Made by a program: the position numbers and the translations under genes. A DNA stretch of 64,000 nt, taken from Eledone cirrhosa. Its lineage: Eukaryota. This document shows positions 3,601-29,083 of this stretch, in pieces. The notes beneath the pieces were generated by a model. That model searched no databases. It had not been told where the DNA came from and saw only the letters and a program-made list of their open reading frames with translations. The stretch spans positions 193,130,001 to 193,194,000 of the forward strand of contig OZ024742.1 of assembly GCA_964016885.1 (NCBI GenBank). Direction: 5' to 3'. Each line of letters begins with the position of its first letter. Position 1 is the stretch's first letter.

Positions 3601-4138
3601 GTTTGTCTTGTGTATTATCTTTTGGTTCTGTTTGGAGTTCTGGAGTTTTGGTTCTATTTGGAGTTCCGAATGGGGTTTTAACAGTATTAGTTATAGATGT
3701 TATGGAGACACGAGTGACATAATAATGATTTCAACAGCAGAAATTAGAGATGAAATATATGTTTATTTTTGATGTAGCACAAACAATGGTGTGGTACAGA
3801 GGCTGGTTTCTGGCGTGTGATCTGTCTGCTTTCCAGTGGCTGTCTGTTTTTATTTTTCTTCGTTCTCAACCAGCGTTGTTCTATCAAGAGGCGTGAGGCG
3901 TCTTACTACAGTACCCTCTGCCAGATTTTCAAATCATCGAAAATCGATGTCATTACTCACATGTGGAGTAAGATAGCGAATAATGCAACAAGAGGGAGCT
4001 ATTCGCTCTACCAAAAATTGAATCCAGAATAAGGATTTGAAAAATGTTAAAAAAAACTAACAACATGCATGCATAAAAAACAAGGCAAAGAAAAAGCAGA
4101 AACACAGAGGCAAAAAAAAAAGGCGCAGCTAACATAGT

Positions 4139-5643: not shown

Positions 5644-5935
5644 GAGACTCTGTGAAGGCATTTATCCAAAAGTTTTGTATTTTGTCTTTTCCTGGGGATT
5701 TCCATTTGCTGGTTTTTCTTAGAGCCAAGCGCAACTGTTCAACTGTTATATTTTCCCATATTTGTTCCTCAAGGTGAGCTGTATCTTTCATTTGTCTGTC
5801 TATCCATGGGGCATGTATGTTATGAACTTTTTCTTCGGCCCAGATCTTTTCCCAGAATTCTTGCACTTCCTCCTTGGGTAGTATTGATTTAGCAGTTATT
5901 GTTGACTTACCAATTTTTCTGTAGAAGTTTCTTCT
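5641..5935 (-). mobile_element. Second family-A RLE fragment (pre-RT region), 5'-truncated against (TAA)n
   Basis: RRNFYRKIGK...EFWEKIW...KWKSPGKDKIQNFWINAFTESH; its last ~70 nt closely match 3180-3250. Confidence 0.85.
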
Positions 5936-6203
5936 TATTATTATTATTACAGTTGCATTTATCTTGCTTTATGTTCATACGAGTTATCACCAAGTCACAA
6001 CCAATGACCTCAAGAGACAACAAGGTCCGCCATGTTCAAGAAAGAACATATATACTCACACATGCATCTTTAGTGTTTAGACTTGTGATGTACTTATATT
6101 GACAGAATATTCCTTAGTATATGGGCAGTTCCCATTAGTACTATCTTTTGTATTTCTCCTATAGGCGAGTTTCCTGGGATTTGCGATAAGTAATCATAAG
6201 ACC
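5936..6203 (-). mobile_element. 3'-terminal fragment of an RLE element with 3' UTR and (TAA)n end
   Basis: Minus strand of about 6095-6200 translates YLSQIPGNSPIGEIQKIVLMGTAHILRNILSI*, homologous to LQKACLLGTARTLRYVLNI*; TTA runs at 5936-5949 and from 6204. Confidence 0.8.
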
Positions 6204-8258
6204 TTATTATAATTATTATTATTATTATTATTATTGTTATTCCTTGAATCTCAGTCATTGATGTTGGTTAACTGGAAAGTCCGTTGGATTGAATATCAAG
6301 CCACTACCTGCAGCCTCAGATATTCAGGACGTATCGGAGGGTTCTTGCCGTTCCAAGCAAGCATGCCTTTTGAAGCGTTCCAAAAAGCGTGAAGGGGCCG
6401 ATTTTCTTTAACCATCCCTGGAAACCTTTGGAGATAGTCCCCAGTGCGCCTATGACAATCGGGATCACTTTGACTTCATGGCAGTTCCAAATCCTTTTCA
6501 CCTCCCACTTTAGGTCCTGGTATCGGTTAATTTTCTCCCTCTCCTTCTCTTGCACTCTCGTGTCGAACGGGCAGGCCACATCCACAATCAGGCACGATCT
6601 TTTTTCTTTGTCCACAACCACCAGGTCAGGTCTATTGTGTTCCAGTTTTTTGTCCGTCTGTATCCTAAAATCCCACAGCACCTTCACCTGACTGTTCTCC
6701 ATCACCGCCTCTGGCCTATGCTCATACCATTTCTCAGAATGTGGTAGATTGTTTACTTTGCACAGGTGCCAGTGGATCACCCTGCCCATCACATCGTGTC
6801 TCCAGCCCTTATAGTGGGTCTGGGCTAGGTGTTTACACTCGGACACAATGTGAGCCACAGTCTCCTCTCTCTCTCCACAGATCCTGCACAGTGGGCTAGC
6901 CTCCTCCTTGTAGATATGGTGCTTCAACCACTTCGTTTTGAGGGCCTGCTCCTGCGCAGCCATTAGCATTCCTTCTGTAGCCTTTTTGAGGTCTCCTCTT
7001 CTCAACCAGTTCCATGTCTGTGGATCTCTAAATTCAGTTTTCTCAAAGAAGGTACTATGAAGGGATTTTCCCTTAAGGCTGCTCTTCCTCCTTGATGTTA
7101 TTTCCTCCTTGGATATCCCCTGGCCTACTGTCCCCTGCTTCAGTACAGCTCTGAGCATTGGCTCCTTACTATAGGTCACGTATTTGTATAGGTTGTTTTT
7201 CTCCATCTGAACACAGTCCTCTATGCTGATAAGACCTCTTCCACCCTCAGATCTCCTTAGGTAGAGTCTATCGACATCACTCCTCTTGTGGAACATGTTG
7301 TAGATAGTCAATAGCTTCCTAGTCTTCCTATCCATTTCTTTTTGTTCAGCAACATTCCATCTCAGAATTCCCGCACTGTACCTAATAATAGACACAGCTC
7401 GGGAATTTACTGCGCTTATGGCATTTCTGCTGTTCAGATGTGACTTCAATACGCTCCTTACTCTCCGAATGTATTCAGTTCTTAACAATTCCTTCTTTTT
7501 TTGTTCTTTATGCCATCAGCCTCCAGAACGCCCAAATACTTGTATCCTTCCTCAGAGTCAATTTCCTTTATCATCTCACCTGTTGGTATCTGGATCCCGT
7601 TACTTCTGCTCAACCTACCCCTCCTCATCACAATGACTCCACATTTACCAATACCAAACTGCATACATATATCACTGCTGAAAATACGGACAGTGTCAAC
7701 AAGCACATCCAACTCCTTCTCACTTTTCCCGAAGAGCTTAAGATGGTCCATGAAGAGGAGGTGATTGATGGTAAGCTCTCCCCTTCCCAACTTGTATCCT
7801 GCTCTCACTTTTCGCAGCATAATGGTCAAGGGCATCAGGGCAAGGACAAACAACAGAGGGGACAGGCTATCTCCCTGGAAGATACCTCTCTTGATCTTCA
7901 CGCTTCCCAAGGATACTCCAGTTGATGTCAACTCTGTCTCCCAGGACCCCATACTCCTGCCCAGCAACTGTCTGATGTTATCTGCCACCCTGAAGATCTC
8001 CAGGCTTTTGGTGATCCAGGAATGAGGCACCATGTCAAATGCCTTTCTGTAGTCTATCCATCCCATGGCAAGATCAGTGTGTCTCCTCCTGCAATTCCCC
8101 ATTACCATCTTATCAATAAGCAACTGGTCCTTTGTACCACGTGACTTCTTTCGGCATCCTTTCTGTTCGTCCGGTAACAAGTTGTTTGTGTGGAGGTGAT
8201 GGTAGATTTCCTCAGACACAATGCTCGTCAACAGTTTCCACATTACGGGCAGACATGT
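6204..8258 (-). mobile_element. RLE element B1, 5'-truncated near-identical copy of B2
   Basis: 6242-8258 matches 8297-10314 almost base for base. 1-bp deletion near 7495 splits the ORF; catalytic MDDL reads MDHL. (TTA)n on both sides. Confidence 0.95.
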
Positions 8259-8370
8259 TTATTATTATTATTATTATTATTATTGTTATTGTTATTCCTT
8301 GAATCTCAGTCATTGATGTTGGTTAACTGGAAAGTCCGTTGGATTGAATATCAAGCCACTACCTGCAGCC

Positions 8371-11300
8371 TCAGATATTCAGGACGTATCGGAGGGTTCT
8401 TGCCGTTCCAAGCAAGCATGCCTTTTGAAGCGTTCCAAAAAGCGTGAAGGGGCCGATTTTCTTTAACCATCCCTGGAAACCTTTGGAGATAGTCCCCAGT
8501 GCGCCTATGACACTCGGGATCACTTTGACTTCATGGCAGTTCCAAATCCTTTTCACCTCCCACTTTAGGTCCTGGTATCGGTTAATTTTCTCCCTCTCCT
8601 TCTCTTGCACTCTCGTGTCGAACGGGCAGGCCACATCCACAATCAGGCACGATCTTTTTTCTTTGTCCACAACCACCAGGTCAGGTCTATTGTGTTCCAG
8701 TTTTTTGTCCGTCTGTATCCTAAAATCCCACAGCACCTTCACCTGACTGTTCTCCATCACCGCCTCTGGCCTATGCTCATACCATTTCTCAGAATGTGGT
8801 AGATTGTTTACTTTGCACAGGTGCCAGTGGATCACCCTGCCCATCACATCGTGTCTCCAGCCCTTATAGTGGGTCTGGGCTAGGTGTTTACACTCGGACA
8901 CAATGTGAGCCACAGTCTCCTCTCTCTCTCCACAGATCCTGCACAGTGGGCTAGCCTCCTCCTTGTAGATATGGTGCTTCAACCACTTCGTTTTGAGGGC
9001 CTGCTCCTGCGCAGCCATTAGCATTCCTTCTGTAGCCTTTTTGAGGTCTCCTCTTCTCAACCAGTTCCATGTCTGTGGATCTCTAAATTCAGTTTTCTCA
9101 AAGAAGGTACCATGAAGGGATTTTTCCTTAAGGCTGCTCTTCCTCCTTGATGTTATTTCCTCCTTGGGTATCCCCTGGCCTACTGTCCCCTCCTTCAGTA
9201 CAGCTCTGAGCATTGGCTCCTTACTATAGGTCACGTATTTGTATAGGTTGTTTTTCTCCATCTGAACACAGTCCTCTATGCTGATAAGACCTCTTCCACC
9301 CTCAGATCTCCTTAGGTAGAGTCTATCGACATCACTCCTCTTGTGGAACATGTTGTAGATAGTCAATAGCTTCCTAGTCTTCCTATCCATTTCTTTTTGT
9401 TCAGCAACATTCCATCTCAGAATTCCCGCACTGTACCTAATAATAGACACAGCTCGGGAATTTACTGCGCTTATGGCATTTCTGCTGTTCAGATGTGACT
9501 TCAATACGCTCCTTACTCTCCGAATGTATTCAGTTCTTAACAATTCCTTCATTTTTTTGTTCTTTATGCCATCAGCCTCCAGAACGCCCAAATACTTGTA
9601 TCCTTCCTCAGAGTCAATTTCCTTTATCATCTCACCTGTTGGTATCTGGATCCCGTTACTTCTGCTCAACCTACCCCTCCTCATCACAATGACTCCACAT
9701 TTACCAATACCAAACTGCATACATATATCACTGCTGAAAATACGGACAGTGTCAACAAGCACATCCAACTCCTTCTCACTTTTCCCGAAGAGCTTAAGAT
9801 CGTCCATGAAGAGGAGGTGATTGATGGTAAGCTCTCCCCTTCCCAACTTGTATCCTGCACTCACTTTTCGCAGCATGATGGTCAAGGGCATCAGGGCAAG
9901 GACAAACAACAGAGGGGACAGGCTATCTCCCTGGAAGATACCTCTCTTGATCTTCACGCTTCCCAAGGATACTCCAGTTGATGTCAACTCTGTCTCCCAG
10001 GACCCCATACTCCTGCCCAGCAACTGTCTGATGTTATCTGCCACCCTGAAGATCTCCAGGCTTTTGGTGATCCAGGAATGAGGCACCATGTCAAATGCCT
10101 TTCTGTAGTCTATCCATCCCATGGCAAGATCAGTGTGTCTCCTCCTGCAATTCCCCATTACCATCTTATCAATAAGCAACTGGTCCTTTGTACCACGCGA
10201 CTTCTTTCGGCATCCTTTCTGTTCGTCCGGCAACAAGTTGTTTGTGTGGAGGTGATGGTAGATTTCCTCAGACACAATGCTCGTCAACAGTTTCCACATT
10301 ACGGGCAGACATGTGATAGGTCTATAGTTGGTAACATCATTACCCTTGATTCGGTCTTTCATTATCAGAACTGTGGTACCTTTTGTCAACCACTCTGGCA
10401 CCTCACCCGACACCAAGCAGTCATTGAACATGGCCGTCAGCTTCGGGTGGAGGGATGTTAAATGTCTAATCCAATACCCCTGCACACCATCTGGGCCTGG
10501 TGATTTCCAGTTGGTTAGTTTTTTGGCTTGCCCCTTAAGAGTTTCAACTGTGATACTCAAATCAGTCTGTTGCTGTGCCTGCTCACCGATCTCCCTCTGT
10601 ACTGTCTCAATCCACCCTGCCTGGGCATTGTGTCTAACATCCTGCTCCCATATTCCTCTCCAGAATGTTTTAGCTTGTTCCGCCCCAGGGATCAAGTCGG
10701 TGCCTCTTTCTTTCCCCTCAAGCTGTCCAAACAGCATCTTCTGGTTGTTGTCGAACATGCGGTTCTGTTTATACTGACTGACTCTGTTCTCGTATCGCCT
10801 GATTTTGGCACTCTTTGCTACAATGCATTGCTTCAATTCCTCTATGATAATATTTAGCTTTTTACTCCTAGTTTTGTATTTTATTTCCAGTCTATTTTTA
10901 GTGCCTATGTTTTTTAGTGTCCCATTCAGTAGTGACTCAAGCTTTCCTATGTCATTTCTCATTTCCCCGATTTGCCCACTCAGTCGCTTCTTCCACCACG
11001 GCTCTGCTCTTTCTTGTCTGTTGTTTCCTCTCGCTTTTATACCAAGTAGTTTCCTCACCGTATTTGCTGTTGCTTTGAGGATATTGTTGCACTGGTGAAG
11101 ACTCCTCGCCTCAAGGTATGGGATGACTTTGTTTACCTTAGCTGTTGTTTCTTTTAACTTTTTCCTGTCTACAAATCTTAGGTTCATAGGTCTCCCACTA
11201 TCATTGTTCAACTCATCTACCACTAAATTTAGGATGTCAACCGAATCTTGTCCTAGCCCGTCAGCATTCATCTCCTCAGTGGCCGTATCTCTGTTCCAGG

Positions 11301-11763
11301 TATTATTTATCTCAGTATTCAGATCATTGTCTGCTTCGGGTGGTTCCTCCGCTCTCAGGACCTCCTCACCTTCATTTCCCGCCGGCTCGCTTGTCTGGCA
11401 TACTACACCCGCCATCTCCAAGCCATTCTCTCTGCTCAGTTCCTCCAGTTCCAGCTCGCTTATCCACCCATTAGTTCTTATTACCCGAGCCTGCTCGGCC
11501 AATTTTTGTTCATCTAATTTAAATAAACCAATCTCGTTCCAGATGTTATGCATCCGTCTCCTGTAGCCCCTCTCCTTGGGGTTACTTTTCAGGTAGCATT
11601 GCATAACAGTTCTATTCAATTCTTTCGTCCAGTTGGTTCTGGCCCCTTTCCTTCTTCTTCTTCCTCCAACATCAGCAGTATTTCGTTGACAGTCAGGTTC
11701 CTGCTGCTGAGCCAGGGGGCACCTGTTGGGTGAGAGTCTGTCACATGACGTTCTAGTCTCCAT
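8371..11763 (-). CDS. Intact 1130-aa RT + CCHC + restriction-like endonuclease protein
   Basis: [31 protein letters not shown]; CRIC...H...C; RHD, RPDLVV, DVACPFD, EK..RY (PD-D/ExK). N-terminal WTKELN...GYRRRMHNIW motif and no N-terminal C2H2 fingers, as in R4-clade proteins. Confidence 0.95.
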   Translation of the reverse strand: METRTSCDRLSPNRCPLAQQQEPDCQRNTADVGGRRRRKGARTNWTKELNRTVMQCYLKSNPKERGYRRRMHNIWNEIGLFKLDEQKLAEQARVIRTNGWISELELEELSRENGLEMAGVVCQTSEPAGNEGEEVLRAEEPPEADNDLNTEINNTWNRDTATEEMNADGLGQDSVDILNLVVDELNNDSGRPMNLRFVDRKKLKETTAKVNKVIPYLEARSLHQCNNILKATANTVRKLLGIKARGNNRQERAEPWWKKRLSGQIGEMRNDIGKLESLLNGTLKNIGTKNRLEIKYKTRSKKLNIIIEELKQCIVAKSAKIRRYENRVSQYKQNRMFDNNQKMLFGQLEGKERGTDLIPGAEQAKTFWRGIWEQDVRHNAQAGWIETVQREIGEQAQQQTDLSITVETLKGQAKKLTNWKSPGPDGVQGYWIRHLTSLHPKLTAMFNDCLVSGEVPEWLTKGTTVLIMKDRIKGNDVTNYRPITCLPVMWKLLTSIVSEEIYHHLHTNNLLPDEQKGCRKKSRGTKDQLLIDKMVMGNCRRRHTDLAMGWIDYRKAFDMVPHSWITKSLEIFRVADNIRQLLGRSMGSWETELTSTGVSLGSVKIKRGIFQGDSLSPLLFVLALMPLTIMLRKVSAGYKLGRGELTINHLLFMDDLKLFGKSEKELDVLVDTVRIFSSDICMQFGIGKCGVIVMRRGRLSRSNGIQIPTGEMIKEIDSEEGYKYLGVLEADGIKNKKMKELLRTEYIRRVRSVLKSHLNSRNAISAVNSRAVSIIRYSAGILRWNVAEQKEMDRKTRKLLTIYNMFHKRSDVDRLYLRRSEGGRGLISIEDCVQMEKNNLYKYVTYSKEPMLRAVLKEGTVGQGIPKEEITSRRKSSLKEKSLHGTFFEKTEFRDPQTWNWLRRGDLKKATEGMLMAAQEQALKTKWLKHHIYKEEASPLCRICGEREETVAHIVSECKHLAQTHYKGWRHDVMGRVIHWHLCKVNNLPHSEKWYEHRPEAVMENSQVKVLWDFRIQTDKKLEHNRPDLVVVDKEKRSCLIVDVACPFDTRVQEKEREKINRYQDLKWEVKRIWNCHEVKVIPSVIGALGTISKGFQGWLKKIGPFTLFGTLQKACLLGTARTLRYVLNI

Positions 11764-12332
11764 TTCACCGTTATTCGAACTGTTTATGTTCGATATTTAA
11801 ACACTCTTATCGAGGATTGGCGAATGTATGTTTACATAGCCATCTGTGGATCCGCCATCCCACTTGGCCCTTGTGTGGCATTATCACCACGCTGTATACG
11901 GACACACATAAACAAACAAACACACGGGCAGAAAGGGCCCCAAAAATGAATAAGCATAAGTTTCATTGTAATGTAGTATTCGAATGTCTGACTTAGTTTT
12001 TGTTTTTTAAGTTTTACTTTTTCCCCCCTCTTCTCTGTCCGTGCGCCTGCTTCTCTCTTCATTCTTATTTTCTTTACGTTTTTGGGGTTTCTTTTTTTGT
12101 TTTTGTTTTTCTCTGTTTTTCTCGTTTTTTACTGTTGTTGCTGTGCTGCTTTTGTTGTTTGTTTTTTCTTTTTTCTTTTGAGTCTATCTATATATTTTGA
12201 TGCCTTCCTCTTTGTTAGTAGTAGGAATTCTATAATGTGGAAGTGGTAGCCAGCAGAGACTAGCGGCGTTGGCGATACTGAGACAGTGGTGGCGGTGATG
12301 TCGATACCGAGGCAGTGGTGGCGGTGATGCGA

Positions 12333-12982
12333 CCGTATTACTGTAGTGATGGTGCTGTAGCGGTGGCAGCAGCAGTGAAGGAGTCAGGGGGTGGTGGCGG
12401 CGGTGATGGGATAGTGGTGGTAATGATGGCCGTAGTGAGCGGTGGCGGTGAAGGTGAAAATGCTGTTGTGTTTAGTGTACACAGATGATGGGGTGGGTGG
12501 TGTATCTAGTTTCTGGTGTTGGTGAGTTTCGCTGTCCTATATAGTGTAGCCAGAGGAGAGGAGGGGGGGGGGGGTTCTTCTTCTTCCATTTATAGCCATT
12601 TTATTTTATTTTTTTTTTTGGATATACAGTGTACAATACAAAGTTGAATATTTGAATATTTGAGCCGTATTACTGTAGTGATGGTGCTGTAGCGGTGGCA
12701 GCAGCAGTGAAGGAGTCAAGGGGTGGTGGCGGCGGTGATGGGATAGTGGTGGTAATGATGGCCGTAGTGAGCGGTGGCGGTGAAGGTGAAAATGCTGTTG
12801 TGTTTAGTGTACACAGATGATGGGGTGGGCGGTGTATCTAGTTTCTGGTGTTGGTGAGTTTAGCTGTCCTATATAGTGTAGCCAGAGGAGAGGAGGGGGG
12901 GGTTCTTCTTCTTCCATTTATAGCCATTTTTTTTTGGATATACAGTGTACAATACAAAGTTGAATATTTGAATATTTGAGCC
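12333..12982. repeat. Tandem duplication (about 332 + 318 bp) in the B2 5' region
   Basis: ccgtattactgtagtgatgg starts at 12333 and at 12665; both units end in tgaatatttgag(cc). Confidence 0.93.
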
Positions 12983-13147
12983 TTATAACAATATATTTTG
13001 GGTCCGAATTTTTTGGGGCTCAAGCCGGGTGCTTTACGTAGCATTTGTACTAAGAGTTGTTATTTCACAAATGATTTAAATATGTTAAAAATTCAAAACT
13101 TACGGGAGCGATTTCATGACCTCCGTCACCTCGTGCGTCTTATTCCC

Positions 13148-13215
<68 letters not shown>

Positions 13216-16200
13216 GTTCTTTGAGTCACAGTCATTGATGTTAGTTAACTGGAAAGTTTGTTGAAATGGATATCAAGCCGCTACCTGCAGCCTCAGATAT
13301 TCAGAACGTATCAGGGGGTTCTTGCTGTTCCCAGCAAGCATGCCTTTTGAAGCGTTCCAAAAAGCGTGGTGGGGCCAATTTTCTTTAACCATCCCTGGAA
13401 ACCTTTTGAGATAGTACCTAGTGCGCCTATGACAATCGTGACCACTTTGACTTCATGGCAGTTCCAAATCCTTTTTACTTCCCACTTTAAGTCCTGGTAT
13501 CGGTTAATTTTCTCCCTCTCCTTATCTTGCACTCTCGTGTCGAATGGGCAGGCCACATCCACAATCAGGCACGATCTTTTTTACTTGTCCAAAACCACCA
13601 GGTCAGGTCTATTGTGTTCCAGTTTCTTGTCCGTCTGTATCCTAAAATCCCACAGCACCTTCACCTGATCGTTTTCTATCACCGACTCTGGCTTATGCTC
13701 ATACCACTTCTCAGAATGTGGTAAATTGTTTACTTTGCATAGGTGACAGTGGATCACCCTGCCCATCACATCATGTCTCCAGCCCTTATAGTGAGTCTGG
13801 GCTAGGTGTTTACACTCGGATACAATGTGAGACAAAGACTCCTCTCTCTCTCCACAGATCCTGCACAGTGGGCTAGCCTCCTCCTTGTAGATATGGTGTT
13901 TCAACCACTTCGTTTCGAGTGCCTGCTCTTGCGCAGCCATTAGCATTGCTTCTGTAGCTTTTTTAAGGTCACCTCTTTTTAACCAGTTCCATGTCTGTGG
14001 ATCTCTAAATTCAGTTTTCTCAAAGAACGTACTATGAAGGGATTTTTTATGAAGGTTAGTCTTGCTCCTTGTTATTTCCTCCTTGGACATCCCCTGGTCT
14101 ATTGTCTTCTCCTTTCAGTACAATTATGAGAATTAGCTCCCTACTGTCGGTCACGTATTTGTGCAGGTTGTTTTTCTCCATCTGAGCACAGTCCTCTATG
14201 CAGATAAGACCTCTTCCACCTTCAGATCTCTTTAAGTATCGAAATCACTCCTCTTGTGGAGCATGTTGTAGATAGACAATTCCTTCCTAGTCTTCCTATC
14301 CATTTCTTTTTGTTCAGCAACATTCCATCTCAGAATTCCCGCAGTGTACCTAATAATAGACAGCGCTCGGGAATTTACTGCACTTATGGCATTCCTACTG
14401 TTAAGATGTGACTTTAATACGCTCCTTACTCTCCGAATGTATTCAGTTCTTATCAATTCCTTCATTTTTTTGTTCTTGATGTCATCAGCCTCCAGAACAC
14501 CCAAATACTTGTATCCTTCTTCAGTGTCAATTTCCTTTATCATCTCACCTGTTGGTACCTGGATTTCGTTGCTTTTGCTCAATTTACCCCTCTTCATCAC
14601 AAGGACTCCACACTTACTAATACCAAATTGCATACATATATCATTGCTGAAAATACGGACAGTGTCAACAAGCACATCCATCTCCTTCGCACTCTTCCCG
14701 AAGAGCTAAGATCGTCCATGAAGAGGAGGTGATTGATGGTAAGCTCTCCCCTTCCCAACTTGTATCCTGCTCTCACTTTTCGCAGTATAATGGTCAGGGG
14801 CATCAGGGCAAGGACAAACGGCAGAGGGGACAGACTATCTCCCTGGAAGATACCTCTCTTGATCTTCACCCCTCGCAAGGATTCTCCAGCTCATGTTAAC
14901 TCTGTTTTCCAGGACCTCATACTTTTGCCGAACAACTGTCTGATGTTATCTGCCACATTGAAGATCTCTAGGCTTTTGGTGATCCAAGAATGAGGCACCA
15001 TGTCAAATGCCTTTTTGTAGTCTATCCATCCCATGGTAAGACCAGTGTCTCTCTTCTTGCAATTCCTCATTACCATCTTATCAATAAGCAACTGGTCCTT
15101 TGTACCACGGGACTTCTTTCGGCATCCTTTCTGTTCGTCCGGTAACAAGTTGTTTGCGTGGAGGTGATGGTAGATTTCCTCAGACATGATGCCTGTCAAC
15201 AGTTTCCACATTACGGACAGACATGTAATAGGTCTATAGTTGGTAACATCATTACCCTTGATTCGGTCTTTCATTACCAGAACTGTTGTACCTTTTGTCA
15301 ACCACTCTGGTACCTCACCTGGCATCAAGCAGTCATTGATCATGGTTGTCAGTTTCGGGTGGAGGGATTTTATGTTTTTAATCCAATACCCCTGCACACC
15401 ATCTGGGCCTGGTGATTTTCAGTTGGTTAGTTTTTTGGCCTACACCTCAAGAGTTTCAACTGTGATACTCAAATCAGTTTGTTGGTGTGCCTGTTCACTA
15501 ATCTCCTTTTGTACTATCTCAATCCACACTGCCTGGTCATTATGTTTAACATCCTGCTCCCATATTCCTCTCCAGAATGTTTTAGTTTGTTACGCTTCAG
15601 GGATCAAGTCGTTGCCTCTTTCTTTCCCTTCAAGCTGTCCAAACAGCATCTTCTGGTTATTGTCAAACATGCAGTTCTGTCTATACTGACTGACTCTGAT
15701 CTTGTATCGCCTATTTTTGCACTCTTTGCTACAATGCGTTGCTTCAGTTCCTCTATGATAATATTTAGCTTTTTCCTCCTAGTTTTGTACTTTATTTCCA
15801 GTCTATTTTTAGTGTCTATGTTTTTTAGTGTCCCATTCAATAGGGACTCAAGATTTCCAATGTCATTTCTCATTTCCCTGATTTGACCATTCAGTCGTTT
15901 CTTCCACTAAGGTTCTGATCTTTCTTGTTTGTTGTTTCCTCTCGCTTTTATGCCAAGTAATTTCCTCACCGCAATTATTGTTGCTTTGAGGATATTGTTG
16001 CTCTGGTGAAGGCTCTTCGCCTCAACGTATGGGATGACTTTGTTTACCTTAGCTGTTGTTTCTTTTAACTTTTTCCTGTCTACAAATCTTAGGTTCATAG
16101 GTTTCCCACTATCATTGTTCAATTCATCTACCACTAAATTTAGGATATCAACCAAATCTTGCCCTAGCCCGTCAGCATTCATCTCCTCAATGGCCGTATC

Positions 16201-17460
16201 TTTGTCCCAGGTATTATTTATTTCAGCATTCAGATCATTGTCTGCTTCGGATGGTTCCTCCGTTCTCTCAACCTCTTCACCTTCATTTCCCACTGGCTCG
16301 TTTGCCTGGCATACTCCACTCTCCATTTCCAACCTAATCTCTCTGCTCAGTTCCTCCAATTCCAGCTCGCTTTACCGTCCATTAGTTCTTATTACCCGTG
16401 CCTGCCCGACCAATTTTTGTTCATCTAATTTAAATAGACCAATCTCGTTCCAGATGTTATGCATCTGTTTCCTATAGCCTTTCTCCTTGGGGCTACTCTT
16501 CAGGTAACATTGCATAACAGTTCTATTCAATTATTTCGTCCAGTTGGTTCTGGTCCCTTTCCTTCTTCTTCTTCCTCTGACACCAGCAGTATTTGGTTGA
16601 AAGCCAGGTCCCTGCTGCTGAGCCAGGGAGCACCTACTGGGTGGGAGTCTGTCACATGACATTCCAGTCTCCACACCACCGTTATTCGAACTGCTTAGGT
16701 TCGACATTTAAACACTCTTATCGAGGATTGGTGAATGTATGGTTACATAAGCACAGGTGATTTCATCACCCCCGGTGATTTTAGTGTGGAACTATCACGC
16801 TGTAAACGAACATAAATAAACAAACAAACAAATAGGTAAAAAATAAACCCAAAAAAGAATAAGCATAAGTTTCATTGTAATATAATGTTTGAATGTCTGA
16901 CTTAGTTTTTCTTTTTTCCTTCTCTGTCTGTCTGATTGTTTTTCTTTTCATTTTTCTTTTCTTTACGCTTTTCGTTGTTGCTGTGCTGTTTTGATTTTGA
17001 TTTTTGGCTTTTTGATTTTTTGACCGGGTCATCAAATCAGTCTATTTATATCTTTTGATGCCTTCCTCTTTTAGTGGGGACAGTACGATGCATTTCTTAG
17101 CAGGAAGTAGTGGGAGAGAATAGCGGCGGTAGTGATAATGAGTCAGTGGTAGTGGTGGTGGTGGTGGTGATGTGCTAGTAGTAGTTAGCAGGATGTAGTG
17201 GGAGAGATCAGCGGCGGAAGCGATAATGAGGCAGTGGTGGTGGTGATGTGATCGTTGTACTGTAGTGATGGTGTTGAAGTTGAAGTAGAAATAGATGTTG
17301 AGGTAACTTGACTAGAGTTTTTGACATGGTAGTGGTGATGGTGGCGGTGGTGGTGTTGGTGGTGAAATTATTTGCCTGTCTGTCCACTTAGCTATTTAGC
17401 TATTTAGCCATTTTGCCATTTTCCTCTTTTTCGACTATAACATTTCTGATCCAAAATTAA
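13148..17460 (-). mobile_element. RLE element B3, near full-length, older and degenerate copy of B2
   Basis: Collinear with B2 from the 3' UTR to the start region (about 16670); multiple frameshifts and stops give ORF pieces from 13311 to 16359; related 5' UTR; (TTA)n on both sides. Confidence 0.93.
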
Positions 17461-17508
<48 letters not shown>

Positions 17509-17517
17509 TTTATTATT
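17461..17517. repeat. (TTA)n array separating the divergent RLE and Tx1 trains
   Basis: About 19 ATT units with one mismatch. Confidence 0.98.
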
Positions 17518-20500
17518 GGCGAGCTACGTAGTAAATCGTATCATCGTGAGCTCCGCAAAGGTTTGTTGATTTCGTTTGTTTAAAATTGCCATTCATGGAA
17601 AACATTTTTGTTAACTGTATATAAGTGCACATACATTGTTTTTCGAAAAGGACACTCAAAAAGATTGGGGCCTTGAGCACAAAATTTAAACTTTTGTAAT
17701 TATAGAAAAAAAACTTTCTTTGAATAAAACTTGGATGACTCACAGCCACACGAAGCTGACAGCCTTCCTCACAAACTAACACCTCACACCGATTCTACTA
17801 TTATAAATATTACTACGTTTGCCAACACTAAAAAAAATATAAGCAGTAGCAATATTTTAAATTTGTCTCAGGCAGACATTCATTTCCCGCCATTACCAAA
17901 GATTGCAGGTGTTAAAGCCGCCCCCCTCCCCACCACAACGACAACAGAAACAAAATTAAAAAAATTAACTCGTGATATCGAAATGAATTCAACCAAAATG
18001 AACTCTTCCACACCGAACACCACTGACGCCACCACCACCATAACTGAAACTAAAATTAATAACAAAAATAACGATAACAACAACAGCAACAATTAAATTA
18101 AGAAAACCACCCTGAGTTTTGCCAGAGTAGTAAAACAATGCAAAGCATTTCAGGTAACTCAGGCGGAATTAGAAGAAGCCAAAAAAATGGTAAAGAAAGA
18201 TGGGTACAGGGTCAGCCCCCCCCCCCACACACACATAATAAAATGGAGCATCGGCACCTATGCACCGTGTCTTATCGAACCATTAATATAAAATCGCGCC
18301 GAGTGGAACGGGCATCCGAGTCCCAAATCCAAAATTCTTTGGGACATGTGTGGGCAAAAAAAAACCCCACATCAGACGTGGGCAGAAATATGGAACCGTG
18401 GAGGTGTTCTTTGAAACACCACAGGAGGCTAGAGAACACTCCATGGCCACATTAATAAGTGACGACTTCACACTCGTCCCAAGCTATTGTGGCCAGAGAC
18501 TCGTAAAGATGAGGGTGACCCACGTTCCACCGGCCATCGAAATTCCCTGGCTAATAGCTGCCGTCCTCGCCGGCATCGAAGCCAACACCAAGATAATCGA
18601 AATAACGAAAGAAAAGCAAGAGAACTGGTCCGGATCTGGGATGGAGCACCTGATCCAAGCGGACCAAAAAAGCATTGAGGTGATCCCAGAGGAAATAGAC
18701 CTCACTGACGGCAGCCACCTCACGGTAATTGTCGAGGGAAGAAGGCCTAGGTGTGTCGTTTGTGGTGAAGGGACCCACCTAAGGGCTTTCTGCCCTCAGG
18801 ATAAAAGGTTGAGGCCACCTCTCCTACCCACCAATGTGACTCAACCATCAACACCACCAGCAGCAGAGATGGCAGCAACAACTGTAGCAGCAACAACAGA
18901 AGCAACTGTAACAGCAACAACCCCAGCAACAGTAGCAAAACCAACACCATCACCACCCAAAGCGCCAGAACTAGCACCAGCGCCTACATTATCCACCACG
19001 CCACAACCAAAACCAACGCCTGTGGAGGATTTTCCACTCCCCGGCCTATCACCACTGGAGACAGATTGTGACAACGAAGAGTGGGAAACGGTATCAGGAA
19101 AAAAGAAAAAAAGAAACCCAAAAAGAATAAATTCTATTACCTTCCCCTCCAAAAACAAAATACAGAGGGAAACAAATAAACTATCAAACAAAAAAGTTAG
19201 GACAGATATGCCACCATCCACACCAGCATCACCAACCCCATCACCAGAAACACCAACACCATCACCATCATTAACCCCCAACACCACCATCACCAACACC
19301 ACAAAAGTCACCAAAAAGCGAAACAGAAACAAACCCACCACAAACGCAAAAAAAAACAAAACAACCAAAACGATACACACTACACAGCATTAAATTTGAA
19401 CATCAACCAATTATTACACTACATCCAACACATCACCATCATCACAGAAAAAGACTACACAACAACCCCAACATTCACACCACCTCCAAACATACAAAGC
19501 ACTCGCATCACACAGAAAACGTACACGACACTAAAACAAAAATTCCCCAAAGACATCAGAGACTTCCGACAAACACTCTCCAGGAGGATTTATAAGGATA
19601 TCCTTCCTGAGGAGGCCACAAGCAGTGAAAATAATGGACAAACCATCCTTCCTCTACGGGAAGTAAGGTAAGTGGTCTTTCCCATCTTTTCCACTCCATT
19701 TCAACATGACCTCACTCAGAATAGGCAGCATAAATGGGCGTGGCTTGGGGTCGTCATGGAAGCAGGGCCACCTGCTCAACGACCTCAGGTCGCTAAACAT
19801 AGATGTAGTGGCCATCAGCGAGACCATATCTCCAAAGCACGGGCCTTCGAACCGATCTTCGGCGGCTACGATGTGTACGCATCTCCCAGCCGTCCGGGAT
19901 CGGGGGAGGTGTTGCTGGGCTTTTTCGGAGAGGTTTGGATCTCGCCATACGGGCCATCTTCCTGGACCCAGAAGGTAAGTTAGTGCTGTTAGACGTGACT
20001 AGCGGAAACGGGCAAGATTTCAGGCTAGTGGCCGTCTATGCTCCGAGAGGAGCAGGGCGGACTGATTTCTTCCGGCGTCTGGAGACCTTTCTTGGAACGT
20101 CCCGCTCTTTAGTGTTAGTGGGCGACTGGAACGGGATCTTAGATGCACGCTGGGAATATGTGGGATTAGGGGATAGGGGTGGAGGGTGCAAGAGCCTCAC
20201 CAACCTGCTCAGGCGTTTTGAACTGTCTGACAGGTACCGATTGGATTTCACGAATGTGGAACTGTGGACTTGGACAAATCGCATAATCTCATCCAGATCA
20301 TATCTAGATAGAGTATTTTGTAGGGAAATAGATAGGTCTAGCATAGGCTGTCCACAATTCAAGATAGTCAGCTACACGGACCACAAATTCGTGACCTGTG
20401 TGCTTCACTTAGATAGGCTTCATAGACGAGCATCCAGCTACTGGAAGCTAAACGCCTCCTTACCAGCTTGCAAGGCCTACAGAGACCGGATTAGCGAACT

Positions 20501-23294
20501 AGTTAAGTGGGCGTTGACGGGGGCCATCGCAACAACAAGTGGTGGTTTGCTCTGAAAAGAGCAATTAGAATAGAGCCATTAGGTTTCGTAAGGCTTTAGC
20601 AATGGAGAAAAATAGAGCAGAGGGAGAAGTAGTGAGAAAATTAGACGAGGCGCTTAGCAAATGCGAAATTGGCCCTTGACCAATTCTTCAATGCAAAATA
20701 CAAAGGCTGCGTTGTCAGAGCTAGGGTGCGTGCTCTCAGAGACGAGGGGACGAAAGCCGTTCAATTGGTCCGAGTGGCGGAGGCTTTAGTGGACCACGAC
20801 GGGCGCATGCTACTCGATCCCGGGAAAATGTGTGAAGCTTTTCAGCGACACTTCGCACAGCTGTTCGGAGACAGCGACGGGCCGGATCGAGGGATGAACT
20901 TTAGTGTCTACCTCGACAGACTGCCGCTGCTCTCGGCCACTGAGACGGAGTGTTGCGAAAAGCCGATAACAGCCACTGAAGTACGGGAGGCAATGACTGG
21001 CTGCACGAGGGGTAAATCGCCTGGTTTAGATGGTCTGCCCTATGAACTTTACATACAGATGCCAGACTTGTTCGGAGGCCTCTTGGCGGACGTCTACTGC
21101 AACTGGCAACAGAACGGGAGAATTCCCAGCTCTGTGAGCCGAGGAGCTGTGGCGCTGCTGAGTAAGGATCCGAACAAAGGGGATAACATAGATAATTTCA
21201 GACCCATAACTCTGCTAAACACATAGTTCAAGATTTTGGCCAAGGTGCTAGCAAAGGGGTTGGCATTTGTCGTTGGTTGTCTGGTGGGAGAGGCGTCGAC
21301 GTGCGCCATTCCCGACAGATCTATCCACGACAACCTCCACCTTATGCGATACATCGTAGAGAGGGTAGCTAGGGAACCTGGGTGGGTCCTTGATAAATTT
21401 AGATCAGTCGAAAGCTTTCGATAGGGTCGACCATCGTTACCTAGCGGCAGTCCTGAGGGCGGCTGGCTTTGGGCCCGTCTTCAGAGGCTGGATCACAGCC
21501 ATGAACAGCGACATGTGCTCTGTGGTGAGAGTGAACGGTCACCTTTCGGAACCGTTCAACATCATGCGCTCGGACCGTCAAGGATGTCCTCTCTCGTCCC
21601 TCTTGTACGAATTGACTCTCGAGCCATTACTGCACAAATTGGAGACATTGAGGGGGGTCCGGTGCGAACTAGGATGCGTAAGATCCGTGTCAGCATATGC
21701 GGACGATGTCACCGTAGTGGTGTCGAACGCAAAACACATCGAGGTGATCGGCACTACACTAAGAGAATACGAAGCGGTGACAGGAGCAATGATAAACCAG
21801 GAAAAGTCAGTGGGCCTGCAGTTCAGCACCTGGAGAGGCAGGTCCATGCTGTCTAACAGCGTCGTCGGCCACCGGACGGACCGGTTAAATTGCTAGGGTC
21901 TGGTTCGGTCCAGACCTCCAGACGGATAAAAGCTGGGACGAGGTGACGAGCAGGGTGGCTTCTTTCACCCAGAAATGGGCGGAGAGGAACCTTTCCTTGA
22001 AAGGTTTGAGCGGAGGTGGCCAACGCGTACATCGCGTCCATCTTCTACTACCGCCTGACCGTCGTACCTTGTCCTGACTGCGCTGGAGCGTTTGCTCTTT
22101 CGCTTTTTGTGGAAGGGACGCGCTCCGATGGTCAGGCGGTCCATCTGCTGTCAACACCCGCTACGTGGAGGGCTTTGCATGCCGTGGCTGATGATGCACA
22201 GACACGCCCTCATGTTACGACATCTCCCCCTCTTCCTCGACGGTGATCAGGTGTGGTCGCCGTTTGCTAGACACGTATTTTCCCAGCTCGTCTCCTTGAT
22301 GGAGCTGCAGTCCTGCGTCAAGCGAAGACCGAGAGGGAGCTCTTGGAGACTAGAATGTCTTTAGGCGTTCACAGCCCTCGACCAATCGGGCAATGTGATC
22401 GGTGGAAACTCCACCTTGGCGTTCTATAGAGGATTAGTGGAGGGAAAGAGCGACGACGTACTTGGAGAAATTCTAGGCGTCGACGAAAATCAACTAGCCA
22501 ATCTCTTCGGAAGGAATTTCGGGCCGGGGCCTATGGACAACTTCCAGAAATCCCTGGCCTGGCAGTGCTACCGAGGATCTTTGCCAGTTCGGGATAAACT
22601 CTACAGGCATGGAGGTGCCGTCAGCCGGGCATGTCCGAGATGCGCGCAGAGCGACGAAACCGTCCTGTACGCACTCGTCCAGTGTCCGAGCATTGCTGAC
22701 TTGTGGGTTTATGTCGAACACCTGCTGTCACGTGTAGGACGGATCCAGCTATCAGCTGAGTCACTCGTGAGGATTACCCCGCCATCTTCCTTTAGCCGGG
22801 AAGGGCAGGCAGTTCTTATCTGTCTGGTGGCCATGGCGAAAGAGATAGTATGGTGGACACGTTTGAAAGGGCTGAAGACGCGCACTTACCTCTTCGGCGA
22901 TGCCCTGATTACCTTTTTCAAATTTCATTTGAAAAGGAAAATCAGGGTAGAGAGGGAAGTGCTCTCTTCCCAGCATTTTGTAGAAAGATGGGTGAGAGAA
23001 GCAAGTATGGCCCGTGTGAATGGGCCTACTCTGAGTTTCTGTCTGTAAATTAAAGGTGGAAAACTGGGAGAGAGCCCTTGCCCTGGTGGTCAGGGTCACT
23101 GTGGCCTTTTAATGGGCTTTCTCCACAAATGTCCCTCGGAAGTGTCCCCCCTATTGGGTAATTTTTTCATTGTTATTTTTTTAATTATATCCTGTTTTTT
23201 TTACACGCAGAAATGCCCATTTGTACCGTCCTGTATTGTCCTGTACTGTCCTTAATGTCTACTTTATGTGAACCCTTGTGGTTAATAAAGAAAA

Positions 23295-23295
<1 letters not shown>
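17518..23295 (+). mobile_element. Tx1/L1-clade element C1, full-length but degenerate
   Basis: ORF1 pieces 17731-19671 with CVVCGEGTHLRAFC. ORF2 pieces 19706-23048 with APE, RT (LDQSKAFD, RQGCPLS, AYADD) and C-terminal CPRC...C. AATAAA at 23284, then (ATT)n 23296-23364. Confidence 0.95.
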
Positions 23296-23364
<69 letters not shown>

Positions 23365-23572
23365 GGCGACCTACGTAGGAAATCGTATTATCGTGAGCTC
23401 CGCAAAGGTTTGTTATTTCCGTTTGTTTAAAAATTGCCATTTATGGAAAATTTTATTGTAAACTGTTTATAAGCACACATACATTGTTTTCCGAAAAGGA
23501 CACCCAAAAAGATTGGGGCCTTGTGCCCAAAATTTTAACTTTTATTATTATCCAAAAATTTCTTTGAAAAAA

Positions 23573-25293
23573 ATGGCTAATTCCCCTCTGCACGAAGCAG
23601 CTGAAAGCCTTCCTCACAAAATAACACCTCACACCGACACCACCATTGTAAATGTTACTACGTTTGCCAACACAAAAAAAAAATATAAGCAGTAGCAATA
23701 TTTTAAATTTGTCTCAGGCAGACATTCATTTCCCGCCATTACCAATGACTGCAGGTGTTAAACCCTCCACCACCACCACCACCGCGACAACCACCACCAC
23801 CACCACCACCGCGACAACAGAAACAAAAGAAGAAAAAAATAAATTAACTCGTGACGTCGAAATGAAATCAAGCAAAATGGACTCTTCCCCACCAAAGACG
23901 ACTGACGTCACCACCACCACAACTGAAAATAAAATTAATATTAACGATAGCAACAACAACAACAATGACATTATAAAACCGACCCTCAGTTTCGCCATCG
24001 TAGCAAAACAATTCGAAGCGTTCACGGTAACTCAAGAAGATTTAGAAAATGCCAAACAAATGGTAAAGAAAGATGGGTACAGGGTCAGCCTCACCCCCCC
24101 CCCCCACCTAATAAAATGGAGCATCGGCGCCTGTGCACCGTGTCGTATAGAACAATAAATGTAAAATCGCGCCGAGTGGAACGGGCATCCGAGTCCCAAA
24201 TCCAAAAAGCTTTGGGACATGTGTGGGCAAGAAAAACCCACATCAGACGTGGGCAAAAGTATGGAACCGTGGATGTGTTCTTTGAAACACCAGAGGAGGC
24301 TAGAGAACACTCCATGGCCCCATTAAAAAGTGACGACCTCACACTCGTCCCAAGCTATTGTGGCCAGAGACTCGTAAAGATCAGGGTGACCCACGTTCCA
24401 CCGGCCATCGAAATTCCCTGGCTAATAGCGGCTGTCCTTGCCGGCATCGAAGCCAACACGAAAATAATAGCAGTAGCAAAAGAAAAGCAGGAAAACTGGT
24501 CCGGATCTGGGATGGAGCTCCTGATCCAAGCGGACCAAAAAAGCATTGAGGAGATCCCAGAGGTAATAGACCTCACTGACGGCAGCCACCTCACGGTAAT
24601 TGTCGAGGGCAGAAGACCTAGGTGTGCCGTTTGTGGTGAAGGAACCCACCTAAGGGCTTTCTGCCCTCAGGCTAAAAGGTTGAGGCCACCTCTCCTACCC
24701 ACCCCAGTGACACAACCATCAACACCACCAGTAGCAGAAATGGCAGCAACAACTGTAGCAGCAACAACAGAAGCAACTATAACAGCAACAACCCCAGCAA
24801 CAGTAGCAAAACCAACACCACTACCACCACCAACAAAACCAACACCACCACCACCCAACGCTTCAGAACTAGCACCAGCGCCTACACCATCCACCACACC
24901 ACAACCAAAACTAACGGCTGTGGAGGATTTTCCACTCCCCGGCCTATCACAACTGGAGACAGATTGTGACGACGAGGAGTGGGAAATGATATCCGGAAAA
25001 AAAAAAGAAACCAAAAAAGAAAAAATTCTCTTCCTTCCCCCTCCAAAAACAAAATACAGAGGGAAACAAATAAACTAAGAAACAAAAAAGTTAGGACAGA
25101 TATGCCACCATCCACACCAGCATCACCAACCCCATCAACCCAAACACCAAACCCATCACCATCATTATCCCCAGCACCACCATCACCTACACCACAAAAG
25201 TCACCAAAAAGCGAAACAGAAACAAACCCACAACAAACGCAAACAAAACAAAACAACCAAAACAACCATCTTTTCCACTCCTTTTCAACATGA
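23573..25293 (+). pseudogene. C2 ORF1, broken at homopolymer runs and lacking its C-terminal segment
   Basis: MANSPLHE start; frames change at poly-A near 23675, poly-C near 24095 and poly-A near 25000; CAVCGEGTHLRAFC knuckle. Confidence 0.75.
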
Positions 25294-28200
25294 CCTCACT
25301 CAGAATAGGCAGCATAAATGCGCGTGGCTTGGGGTCGTCATGGAAGCAGGGCCACCTGCTCAACGACCTCAGGTCACTAAACATAGATGTAGTGGCCATC
25401 AGCGAGACCAGAATCTCCGAAGCACAGGCTTTCGCACCGATCTTCGGCGGCTACGATGTGTACGCATCTCCCAGCCGTCCGGGATCGGGGGGAGGAGTTG
25501 CTGTGCTTTTTCGGAGAGGTTGGATCTTTCCATACGGGCCATCTTCCTGGACCCAGAAGGTAAGTTGGTGGTGCTGGACGTGACCAGCGGAGACGGGCAA
25601 GCTTTCAGGTTAGTGGCCGTTTATGCCCCGACAGGAGCAGGGCGGCCTGATCTCTTCCGGCGTCTGGAGACCTTTCTTGGAACGTCCCGCTCTTTAGTGT
25701 TAGTGGGCGACTGGAACGGGATCTTAGATGCACGCTGGGATTGTGTGGGATTAGTGGATAGGGAAGGAGGGTGCAAGAGTCTCACCAACCTGCTCAGACG
25801 TTTTGAACTGTCTGACAGGTACCGAATGGATTTCCCGAATGTACCAATGTGGACTTGGACAAGTCGCATAGGGTCATCCAGATCATATCTAGATAGAGTA
25901 TTTTGTAGGGAAATAGATAGGTCTAGCATAGGCTGTCCACAATTCAAGATAGTCAGCTACACGGACCACAAATTCGTGATCTGTGTGCTTGACTTAGATA
26001 GGCTTCATAGACGAGGACCCGGCTACTGGAAGCTAAACGCGTCCTTACCAGCGCGCAAGGCCTACAGAGACCGGATTAGCGCACTAGTTAAGCGGGCGTT
26101 GACGGGGGCCATCGTCAACAACAAGTGGTGGTTTGCTCTGAAAAGAGCAATTAGAATAGAGTCCATTAGGTTTAGTAAGACTTTAGCAATAGAGAAAAAT
26201 AGAGCAGAGGGAGAATTAGTTAGAAAATTAGATGAGGCGCTTAGCAAAGGCATCGCGACCGACGTACTTGCGGCGAAATTGGCCCTTGACCAATTCTTCA
26301 ATGCAAAGCACGAAGGCTGCGTTGTCAGAGCTAGGGTGCGTGCTCTCAGACACGAGGGGACGAAAGCCGTTCAATGGGCCCGAGTGGCGGAGGCGCGTCG
26401 TGGCAACAAAGCCACGATCCGGTCTTTGGTGGACCACGACGGGCGCATGCTACTCGATCCCGGGCAAATGTGTGAAGCTTTTCAGCGACACTTCGCTCAA
26501 CTGTTCGGGGGCAGTGGCGGGCCGAATCGAGGGATGGACTTTAGTGTCTACCTCGACGGACTGCCGCGGCTTTCGGCCACTGAGGCGGAGTGTTGCGAAA
26601 AGCCGATAACAACCGCTGAAGTACGGGATGCAATGACTAGTTGCACAAGGGGCAAATCGCCTGGTTTGGATGGTCTGCCCTATGAACTTTACGTACAAAT
26701 GCCAAACTTGTTCGGAGGCCTCTTGGCGGACGTCTACTGCAACTGGCAACAGAACGGGAGAATTCCCAGCTCTGTGAACCGAGGAGCGGTGGCGCTGCTG
26801 AGAAAGGATCCGAACAAGGGGATAACATAGATAATTTTAGGCCCATAACTCTGCTAAACACAGAGTTCAAGATTTTGGCCAAGGTGCTAGCAAAGAGGTT
26901 GGCGCTTGTCGTTGGTGGTCTGGTGGGAGAGGCACAGACATGCGCCATTCCCGACAGATCCATCCACGACAACCTCCACCTCATGCGATACATCGTAGAG
27001 AAGGTAGCTAGGGAACCTGGCACGGGTGGGTCTTTGATCAATTTAGATCAGTCGAAAGCCTTCGATAGGGTCGACCATCGTTACCTAGCGGCAGTCCTGA
27101 GGGCGGCTGGCTTTGGGCCCGTCTTCAGAGGCTGGATCGCTGCCATGCACAGCGACATCTGCTCTGTAGTGAGAGTGAACGGTCACCTTTCGGAACCGTT
27201 CAACATCATGCGCTCGGTCCGCCAAGGATGTCGACTCTCGTCCCTATTGACCGTATTGATTCTCGAGCCATTACTGCAGAAACTGGAGACGTTGAGGGGG
27301 GTCCCGCGCGAACTAGGATGCGGAAGATCCGTGTCAGCATATGCCGACGATGTCACCGTAGTGGTGTCAAACGCCAAACACATCGAGGCGATCGGCACTA
27401 CACTAAGAGAATACGAAGCGGTGACAGGAGCAATGATCAACCAGGAAAAGTCAGTGGGCCTGCAGCTCGGCACCTGGAGAGGCAGGTCCATGCCGTCCAA
27501 CAGCGTCGTCGGGCGCTGGACGGACGGACCGGTTAAATTGCTAGGGGTCTGGTTCGGTCCAGACCTCCAGACGGACAAAAACTGGGACGAGGTGACGAGC
27601 AGGGTGGCTTCTCTCACCCAGAAATGGGCCGAGAGGAAGCTATCCCTGAAAGGTCGAGCGGAGGTGGCGAATGCGTACATCGCATCCGCCATCTACTACC
27701 GCCTGACCGTCGTACCTTGTCCTAAGCCCCGCCTGACTGCGCTGGAGCGTTTGCTCTTTCGCTTCTTGTGGAAGGGACGCGCTCCGATGGTCAGGCGGTC
27801 CATCTGCTGTCAACACCCGCTACGCGGAGGGCTGGGTATGCCGTGGCTGATGATGCGCAGACACGCGCTCAGGCTACGACATCTCCACCTCTTCCTCGAC
27901 GGTGATCAGGTGTGGTCGCCGTTTGCAAGAAACGTTTTTCCCCAGCTCGTCTCCTTGACGGAGCTGCAGTCCTGGGTCAAGCGAAGACCGAGAGGGAGCG
28001 CTTGGAGACTGGAATGTCTTCAGGCGCTCACAGCCCTCGACCAATCGGGCAATGTGATCGGTGGAAACTCCACCTTGGCGTTCTATAGGGGATTAGTGGA
28101 GGGGAAGAGCGACGACGTACTTGGAGAAACTCTAGGCGTCGACGAAAATCAACTAGCCAATCTCTTCGGAAGGACTTTCGAGCCGGGGCCTATGGACAAC

Positions 28201-28707
28201 TTCCAGAAATCCCTGGCCTGGCAGTGCTACCGAGGAGCTTTGCCAGTTCGGGATATACTCTACAGGCATGGAGGTGCCGTCAGCCGGGCATGTCCGAGAT
28301 GCGCGCAGGGCGACGAAACCGTCCTGCACGCACTCGTCCAGTGTCCGAGCATTGCTGACTTGTGGGTTTATGTCGAACACCTACTGTCACGTGTAGGACG
28401 GATCCAGCTATCAGCTGAGTCCATCGTGAGGATTGCCCCGCCGTCTTCCTTTAGCCGGGAAGGGCAGGCAGTTTTTATCTGTCTGGTGGCCATGGCGAAA
28501 GAGATAGTATGGTGGACACGTTTGAAAGGGCTGAAGACGAGCACTTACCTCTTCGGTGATGCCCTGATTAACTTTTTCAAATTTCATTTGAAAAGGAAAA
28601 TCAGGGTAGAGAGGGAAGTGCTCTCTTCCCAGCATTTTGTTGAAAGATGGGTGAGAGAAGCAAGTATGGCCCGAATGAATGGGCCTTCTCTGAGTATGTG
28701 TCTGTAA
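25290..28707 (+). pseudogene. C2 ORF2 (APE-RT-CCHC) with two 1-bp frameshifts
   Basis: MTSLRIGSINARGL start. Relative to C1, single bases are missing near 25519 (aggttgg vs aggtttgg) and near 26817 (caagggg vs caaagggg). YADD intact; CPRC...HALVQC. Confidence 0.9.
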
Positions 28708-28948
28708 ATTAAAGGTGGAAAACTGGGAGAGGGTACTTGCCCTGGTGGTCAGGGCCACTGTGGTCTTTTAATGGGCTTTCTCCACAAATGTCCCTTGGAA
28801 GTCTCCCTCCTATTGGGGAATTTTTCTTTGTTATTTTATTTCAACCTCTGTTTTTTACACGCAGAAATGCCCATTTGTACCGTCCTGTATTGTCCTGTAC
28901 TGTCCTTAATGTCTACTTTATGTGAACCCTTGTGGTTAATAAAGAAAA

Positions 28949-28991
<43 letters not shown>

Positions 28992-29083
28992 GGGGTGTAT
29001 AAAATAAAGTACCAGTAATACACTGGGATAATTGCTGGCCTTTTGCCAAAAGTAGAAACAATTATTATTATTATTATTATTAC
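28992..29083 (+). mobile_element. 5'-truncated SINE with (TTA)n tail
   Basis: ggggt..ataaaataaagtaccagtaat...aattgctggcc...agtagaaacaatt matches the 3' half of the SINEs at 61225, 42645 and 61962. Confidence 0.88.

Follow-up and report, generated by a model that had tools for sequence, protein, structure and literature searches.

Two families of long interspersed nuclear elements (LINEs) in Eledone cirrhosa very likely target one ATT/AAT repeat in fixed opposite orientation, each probably priming from a nick on the opposite strand: family C, which is Tx1-like and carries an apurinic/apyrimidinic-type endonuclease (APE), and family B, which is Dong/R4-like and carries a restriction-like endonuclease (RLE). 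Both occur in a mixed array at 5936..29083 of the window, by which we mean the whole 64,000-nucleotide stretch analyzed (assembly GCA_964016885.1, contig OZ024742.1, positions 193,130,001 to 193,194,000, forward strand), and the array elements were identified by self-comparison, Pfam and tblastn. All eight runs that a first-pass annotation had described as separating seven inserts were found, each reading TTA on the plus strand. No other (TTA)n run of at least four units is present on the plus strand of the 64 kb, where (TAA)4 runs occur at two positions, 39538 and 42647. The order, with a run between each pair, is A0(-), A(-), B1(-), B2(-), B3(-), C1(+), C2(+) and S(+), S being the end of a short interspersed nuclear element (SINE). 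A0, which lies on the minus strand to the left of run 1 and adds to the seven inserts, also keeps the rule that RLE elements are on the minus strand and Tx1-like elements on the plus strand. The junction phase proposed by the annotation was confirmed for six elements, since C1, C2 and S begin after ATT and A, B1 and B2 after TAA on their own strand, and it is ambiguous by one or two bases at the 5' junction of B3.

The targeting extends to dispersed copies of C. Genome-wide, (ATT)3 stands in phase directly 5' of 579 of 621 exact C heads (93%) and directly after 6,870 of 8,813 C 3' ends. These flanks are not due to chance, because the background frequency of ATTATTATT before a strand position is 0.022% in an 800-kb random genome sample. 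Both of the head exceptions inspected are one-base variants of ATT runs. To avoid the bias of a single head, we also took a position-ordered sample of 40 C tails, comprising all 15 without (ATT)3 and 25 of the 85 with it; these represent 40 of 60 planned loci, all within the first 46 Mb of one contig. A 5' ATT run was present in 21 of 21 resolved full-length copies with three unrelated heads, three further copies being unresolved, and weighting the strata gave about 75% of all C copies as ATT-flanked. Target preference in the sense of Kojima (2015), that is, more than 20% of flanks, is thus exceeded by heads (93%) and by all copies (about 75%). The 5' flanks of dispersed full-length copies support ATT as a target of C rather than only a 3' tail; unique-sequence 5' flanks in most copies, which the annotation had set as a refutation, were not seen among them.

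ATT targeting by C is less strict for 5'-truncated copies. Several of those that failed the strict 5' test lie in ATT-like sites (ATTATTGTT, ATTACTACT, ATTATATA) with 14-22-bp duplications, while others are inserted into unique DNA or a run of CTT; at one degenerate site (L369), a C insertion is flanked by a duplication of 16 bp. In an array-biased set, which excludes L093, a copy that proved to be full-length, and two subfamily boundaries, 11 of 14 truncated copies passed. The TTA-specific Tx1 family suggested by the annotation is therefore borne out for full-length C, whereas truncated C often occupies degenerate ATT-like sites. TTC runs adjoin only a few C copies. Separately, in some C tails or flanks ATT gives way to CTT, a Koshi-type unit (L006/L086, L240, L373 and L389), and an unclassified repeat of about 110 bp, associated with ATT runs, occurs on both sides of C copies (L098, L115, L092 and L396) and is possibly another user of the ATT target.

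For family B, (AAT)3 within 0-4 nt before the head gave 505 matches for 657 exact heads, or about 72% after a double-count correction based on 6 double counts among 100 listed rows. An AAT run lies within 40 nt of all 27 evaluable B 5' ends (3 of 30 were not evaluable), three of four head exceptions inspected are interrupted AAT runs, and 19 of 25 truncated B copies are AAT-flanked. A DNA search with the B 3' end (21 matches) missed known copies, since it passes over frequent words, and was excluded from the counts. The reverse transcriptase (RT) motifs of B2, followed by CCHC and PD..(D/E)xK nuclease motifs, are conserved in a 59-sequence alignment, and its protein model (predicted local distance difference test, pLDDT, 86.5) best matches R2 proteins (E 2.5e-35). 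Over the first 350 residues of the B protein, the alignment lacks a conserved Cys/His finger. Residues 47-117, examined as a candidate Myb/SANT-like domain, form a conserved helical domain with no Pfam match, for which a separate model was poor (pLDDT 52) and a fold search uninformative. None of the 120 listed B homologues has a family name. Dong/R4 fits all features tested for B, which were assessed without a tree of named references, and B looks like an ordinary Dong member. The 5' untranslated region (UTR) of B2 contains a tandem duplication of about 330 bp (12333-12989), present in one to three copies among genomic copies.

Beside 293 distinct ATT-oriented runs, C is on the plus strand in 142 of 142 cases, B on the minus strand in 125 of 128, A on the minus strand in 16 of 16 and S on the plus strand in 30 of 31; these counts include tails, which are trivially oriented, and most of the loci behind them were selected because they hold these elements. 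The 800-kb random sample alone, about 3.5% of which is C-like sequence and about 1.1% B, contains no C, B or A neighbour that departs from the orientation rule. The strand assignment made for the array thus holds genome-wide, and the random orientation relative to TTA that had been set as a possible refutation was not seen. Moreover, when the two flanking runs are added up for each of 26 full-length C copies, the median is 78 bp, compared with 30 bp as the length-biased mean of 40 random runs, which supports the earlier proposal that insertions regenerate the target and make net new repeat. A B, A, C or S neighbour lies within 350 nt of 42 of 49 full-length C copies versus 10 of 60 random windows. 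Long summed flanks and frequent neighbours together suggest that the arrays feed themselves. Contigs of four organisms compared with a solo C copy (L087) yielded no joint that skips the element, as an empty site would, among the 15 joints listed, with 1,490 more unlisted.

The SINE to which S belongs is abundant, with 78 matches in the random sample. The annotation noted that its end in the array begins after ATT; overall, (ATT)4 follows 4 of 70 copies, so the SINE is not microsatellite-specific. Exact duplications of at least 10 bp (median 16) were found in 30 of the 70 copies, 29 of these 30 start with ATTAT, and the preceding base is C or T in 26; under a looser rule, duplications were present in 37 of 70 copies versus 10 of 210 controls. 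The insertion site is a short Y/ATTAT with duplications of about 16 bp. Among ten hand-picked variants of the 3' hairpin that the SINE shares with C, both sides changed in three of four pairs, a covariation between the SINE and C subfamilies that, in so short a hairpin, is suggestive only. The SINE is likely mobilised by C-family proteins and would thus report their core site.

ORF2, the second open reading frame (ORF) of C, contains the Pfam domains Exo_endo_phos, RVT_1 and zf-RVT, corresponding to APE, RT and a C-terminal zinc motif. Its 1152 codons are intact in about ten genomic copies and broken in the window copies. In the intact copy L119 the APE catalytic residues align and are preserved, and ORF1 has 531 codons; the zinc knuckle of C ORF1 (C-x2-C-x4-H-x4-C) was read in the translation, and Pfam gives no knuckle match. 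L1 ORF2p is the best structurally solved relative of C ORF2 (E 1e-52), and among the homologues only a coral protein, 'Transposon TX1', has an informative name. Two metagenome relatives (L157:5815-5977 and L155:4675-4885) have U2 snRNA directly 3', as Keno-like insertions do. In a quick RT tree of 57 rows, built without named Tx1L, Kibi, Koshi or L1 and leaving out 52 RT-poor ORFs, C falls into a 34-row group with two U2-flanked Keno-like elements and the coral TX1 protein (SH-aLRT 92, unstarred). Tx1 fits all features tested for C, the tree being one without named reference families. No ATT flanks were found at element ends in the 18 metagenome loci examined, whose elements are 24-54% identical to C.

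Family C itself is diverse. Among subfamilies more than 90% identical in ORF2 and the 3' region, the 5' UTR/ORF1 head is of at least three unrelated kinds, with the switch near 750-960 on the element strand in L361, L370, L373, L374, L377 and L385, which suggests 5' module swapping like that of mammalian L1. An apparent break at reference base 2126 or 1902, considered as truncation, was rejected as a subfamily boundary or C2's own deletion. The young copies L082-L120, a set chosen by 3' identity, are mostly full-length (about 33 of 39), which is unusual for LINEs. Contigs of four other organisms cover most of the C element (L087) at a level of at least 85%, so the family extends to related species.

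Diverged relatives of C in the same genome (L252 and L311-L354), which make up one or more Tx1-like sister families, end in (ATCT)n. (ATCT)2 is present on the 3' side of 15 of 30 sister copies and on the 5' side of 11 of 26, against a background of 0.33%; a first look gave 3,846 candidates for one sister-family 3' end. In one copy (L345:1249-5020) ORF2 is intact and shares 66% identity with that of C, and (CTAT)n flanks it on either side. The sister family prefers (ATCT)n. The stretch that aligns with the L1 endonuclease hairpin loop, which we take to be a specificity determinant and which is a putative one in C and the sister family, differs between the two.

Flanks, phase, orientation and domains were read directly from the DNA, and strand choice was derived from standard target-primed reverse transcription. 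In such a scheme the C protein would prime on the A-rich AAT strand, making the C sense strand continuous with ATT, and the B protein would prime on the T-rich ATT strand, making the B sense strand continuous with AAT; their opposite polarity would arise because of this difference in primed strand. The Y/ATTAT core would put the end of the primer at a T/purine step like that of L1-type endonucleases, and an (ATT)n run would offer a site of this type every three bases. Each insertion, through target duplication and a repeat tail, would leave two runs in place of one, and the new runs could be used by either family, allowing mixed arrays to grow.

Besides the make-up of the orientation counts, several observations weigh against opposite-strand targeting by C and B. 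One SINE and three B copies depart from the orientation rule, and (ATT)3 is missing after 22% of C tails. The length of the flanking runs might also stem from youth or from a preference for long targets, and the likely partnership of SINE and C draws on similarity over about 30 nt and a hairpin of 4 bp. Additionally, in the position-ordered sample the strict 5' ATT test was passed by 5 of 16 truncated C copies as against 21 of 21 full-length ones. This last difference favours the idea that the 5' (ATT)n is part of the C transcript, gained by upstream read-through and carried by full-length copies into ordinary sites. Unique duplications would then be expected outside the runs; they were found in 1 of 49 full-length C copies versus 13 of 980 controls, in a test weakened by later neighbouring insertions, and all three unrelated C heads follow ATT. 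We consider such read-through very unlikely. An apparent duplication beyond the run, at L393, was dropped, its shared bases being the head of another C subfamily.

A better, still rather improbable, alternative is that the C endonuclease is loosely specific and that an AUU tail of the RNA pairs with the nicked AAT primer, the arrays resulting from insertion into earlier tails. The short ATTAT-type sites used by the SINE and truncated C, the match between the sister-family tail and its own (ATCT)n flanks, and the many C copies that entered the tails left by earlier C or SINE insertions agree with it. However, 5-nt pairing leaves the 93% exact (ATT)3 at 5' junctions unexplained, the C or T before 26 of 30 duplications lies outside the paired stretch, and the loop that putatively sets specificity is not the same in the ATT and ATCT families. 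Tail pairing alters which component reads the site; targeting and polarity stand either way. The 99.4% likeness of B1 and B2 might also point to local tandem duplication, passive pile-up or an assembly artefact, for which we see practically no chance: genome-wide counts refute it, since hundreds of sites scattered over both strands show the pattern, and the array members diverge by as much as 10% and have different 5' ends.

Much of the behaviour of C and B has precedents, which we take from portions of the cited papers. Microsatellite-targeting Tx1 families, namely Kibi, Koshi and crocodilian ones, use (TC)n, (TTC)n, (TTCC)n and (TTTC)n (PMC4494074, PMC3812793). C resembles Kibi and Koshi as an APE-type Tx1-like LINE in microsatellites and differs in its target, (ATT)n, or (ATCT)n in the sister family, from their (TC)n and (TTC)n. 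Dong targets (TAA)n in insects, molluscs and cnidarians (PMC7998251, PMC3812793), and R4/Dong elements have a single ORF, an RT, a C-terminal restriction-like nuclease, no N-terminal zinc finger and a diverged Myb/SANT-like domain (PMC7998251). B shares the single ORF, RT, nuclease, lack of an N-terminal finger and (TAA)n target with Dong, and we found no difference. Parallel evolution of one target is known from Keno (APE) and Utopia (RLE) at the U2 snRNA gene (PMC4640811); unlike C and B, they share a single conserved site in a gene, where their 3' flanks are identical, without opposite polarity or a renewable target. SART and TRAS of Bombyx build arrays by inserting, in opposite orientations, into the same short tandem repeat (PMC10088271). 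They belong to the R1 clade, carry APE and occupy telomeric repeats, whereas C and B have unrelated endonucleases and use a dispersed microsatellite that they likely lengthen.

In Octopus vulgaris, 1129 Dong-R4 and 421 L1-Tx1 recently active insertions are reported (PMC13282606), with mean lengths about those of B and C in a comparison by clade name and length only. The word 'target' is absent from the main text of that paper, and the available text of the cephalopod repeat papers (PMC13282606, PMC8967140, PMC9115989) names Dong and Tx1 clades without targets. We found no Tx1 family targeting (ATT)n or (ATCT)n in the literature searched, Repbase, Dfam, and Fig. 3 and the supplements of PMC4494074 lying outside the search. 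Judging from the portions consulted, Dong in (TAA)n, microsatellite targeting by Tx1, the opposition of SART and TRAS, and APE/RLE convergence are already published; the new part is a Dong-like B sharing its target with the APE family C.

These elements add two target units, (ATT)n and (ATCT)n, to the Tx1 repertoire, and provide young intact APE and RLE enzymes that would read one duplex from opposite sides. They are a candidate source for ATT microsatellites and mixed LINE arrays, and close relatives with different repeats make it testable whether the endonuclease loop or RNA tail pairing decides. There is about an even chance that an undescribed Tx1-like lineage radiated onto AT-rich microsatellites and, with a SINE seeding ATTAT duplications and an opposite-strand Dong, forms a three-party landing-site system. 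If so, C and its sister family would be a natural experiment on how changes in the loop of an APE endonuclease alter the choice of target.

Features of the array, in window coordinates
Feature	Position	Strand	Remarks
A0	5642..5934	-	second RLE-type LINE fragment, RT N-terminal region, 5'-truncated at run 1; by tblastn
ATT run 1	5935..5949	+	
A	5950..6203	-	254-bp 3' end of second RLE family; translates as RLE C-terminus
ATT run 2	6204..6235	+	left part imperfect (6204/6213-6235)
B1	about 6236..8258	-	Dong/R4-like LINE, 5'-truncated inside RT; 99.4% to B2
ATT run 3	8259..8295	+	8259-8282, then TTG/TTA units, and AAC-containing B2 3' tail
B2	8296..13147	-	full-length Dong/R4-like LINE: RT, CCHC, PD..D..EK nuclease
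B2 ORF	11763-8371	-	single, intact, 1130 aa from Met
ATT run 4	13148..13216	+	13148-13213
B3	13217..17460	-	older full-length B subfamily copy, frameshifted, other 5' end; about 90% to B2
ATT run 5	17461..17517	+	17461-17508, interrupted tail to 17517; B3/C1 head-to-head junction
C1	17518..23295	+	full-length L1/Tx1-like LINE, ORFs broken; 90.8% to intact genomic copy
ATT run 6	23296..23364	+	
C2	23365..28949	+	young L1/Tx1-like LINE; ORF1 with CCHC knuckle, ORF2 APE-RT-zf
3' hairpin	28925..28937	+	4-bp stem, 5-nt loop; common to C subfamilies, ATCT sister family and SINE
ATT run 7	28950..28991	+	
S	28992..29060	+	5'-truncated 70-bp end of abundant SINE, likely C-family partner
ATT run 8	29061..29082	+	

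Within the array, A0 is 36% identical to the B ORF at 5642-5872 by tblastn, and C2 is 97-99% identical to intact copies, with an internal deletion of about 290 bp at the ORF1/ORF2 junction and frameshifts. Elsewhere in the window, a diverged Tx1-like element at 1-2490 (+) meets an RLE fragment at 2479-3351 (-) without an ATT run. This fragment is split by an insert at about 3300-5640 with Gypsy-type integrase ORFs; 3179-3260 recurs at 5640-5721. A Penelope-like element with RT and GIY-YIG lies at 32634-34129 (-), and another RLE C-terminal fragment at 56972-57187 (+).

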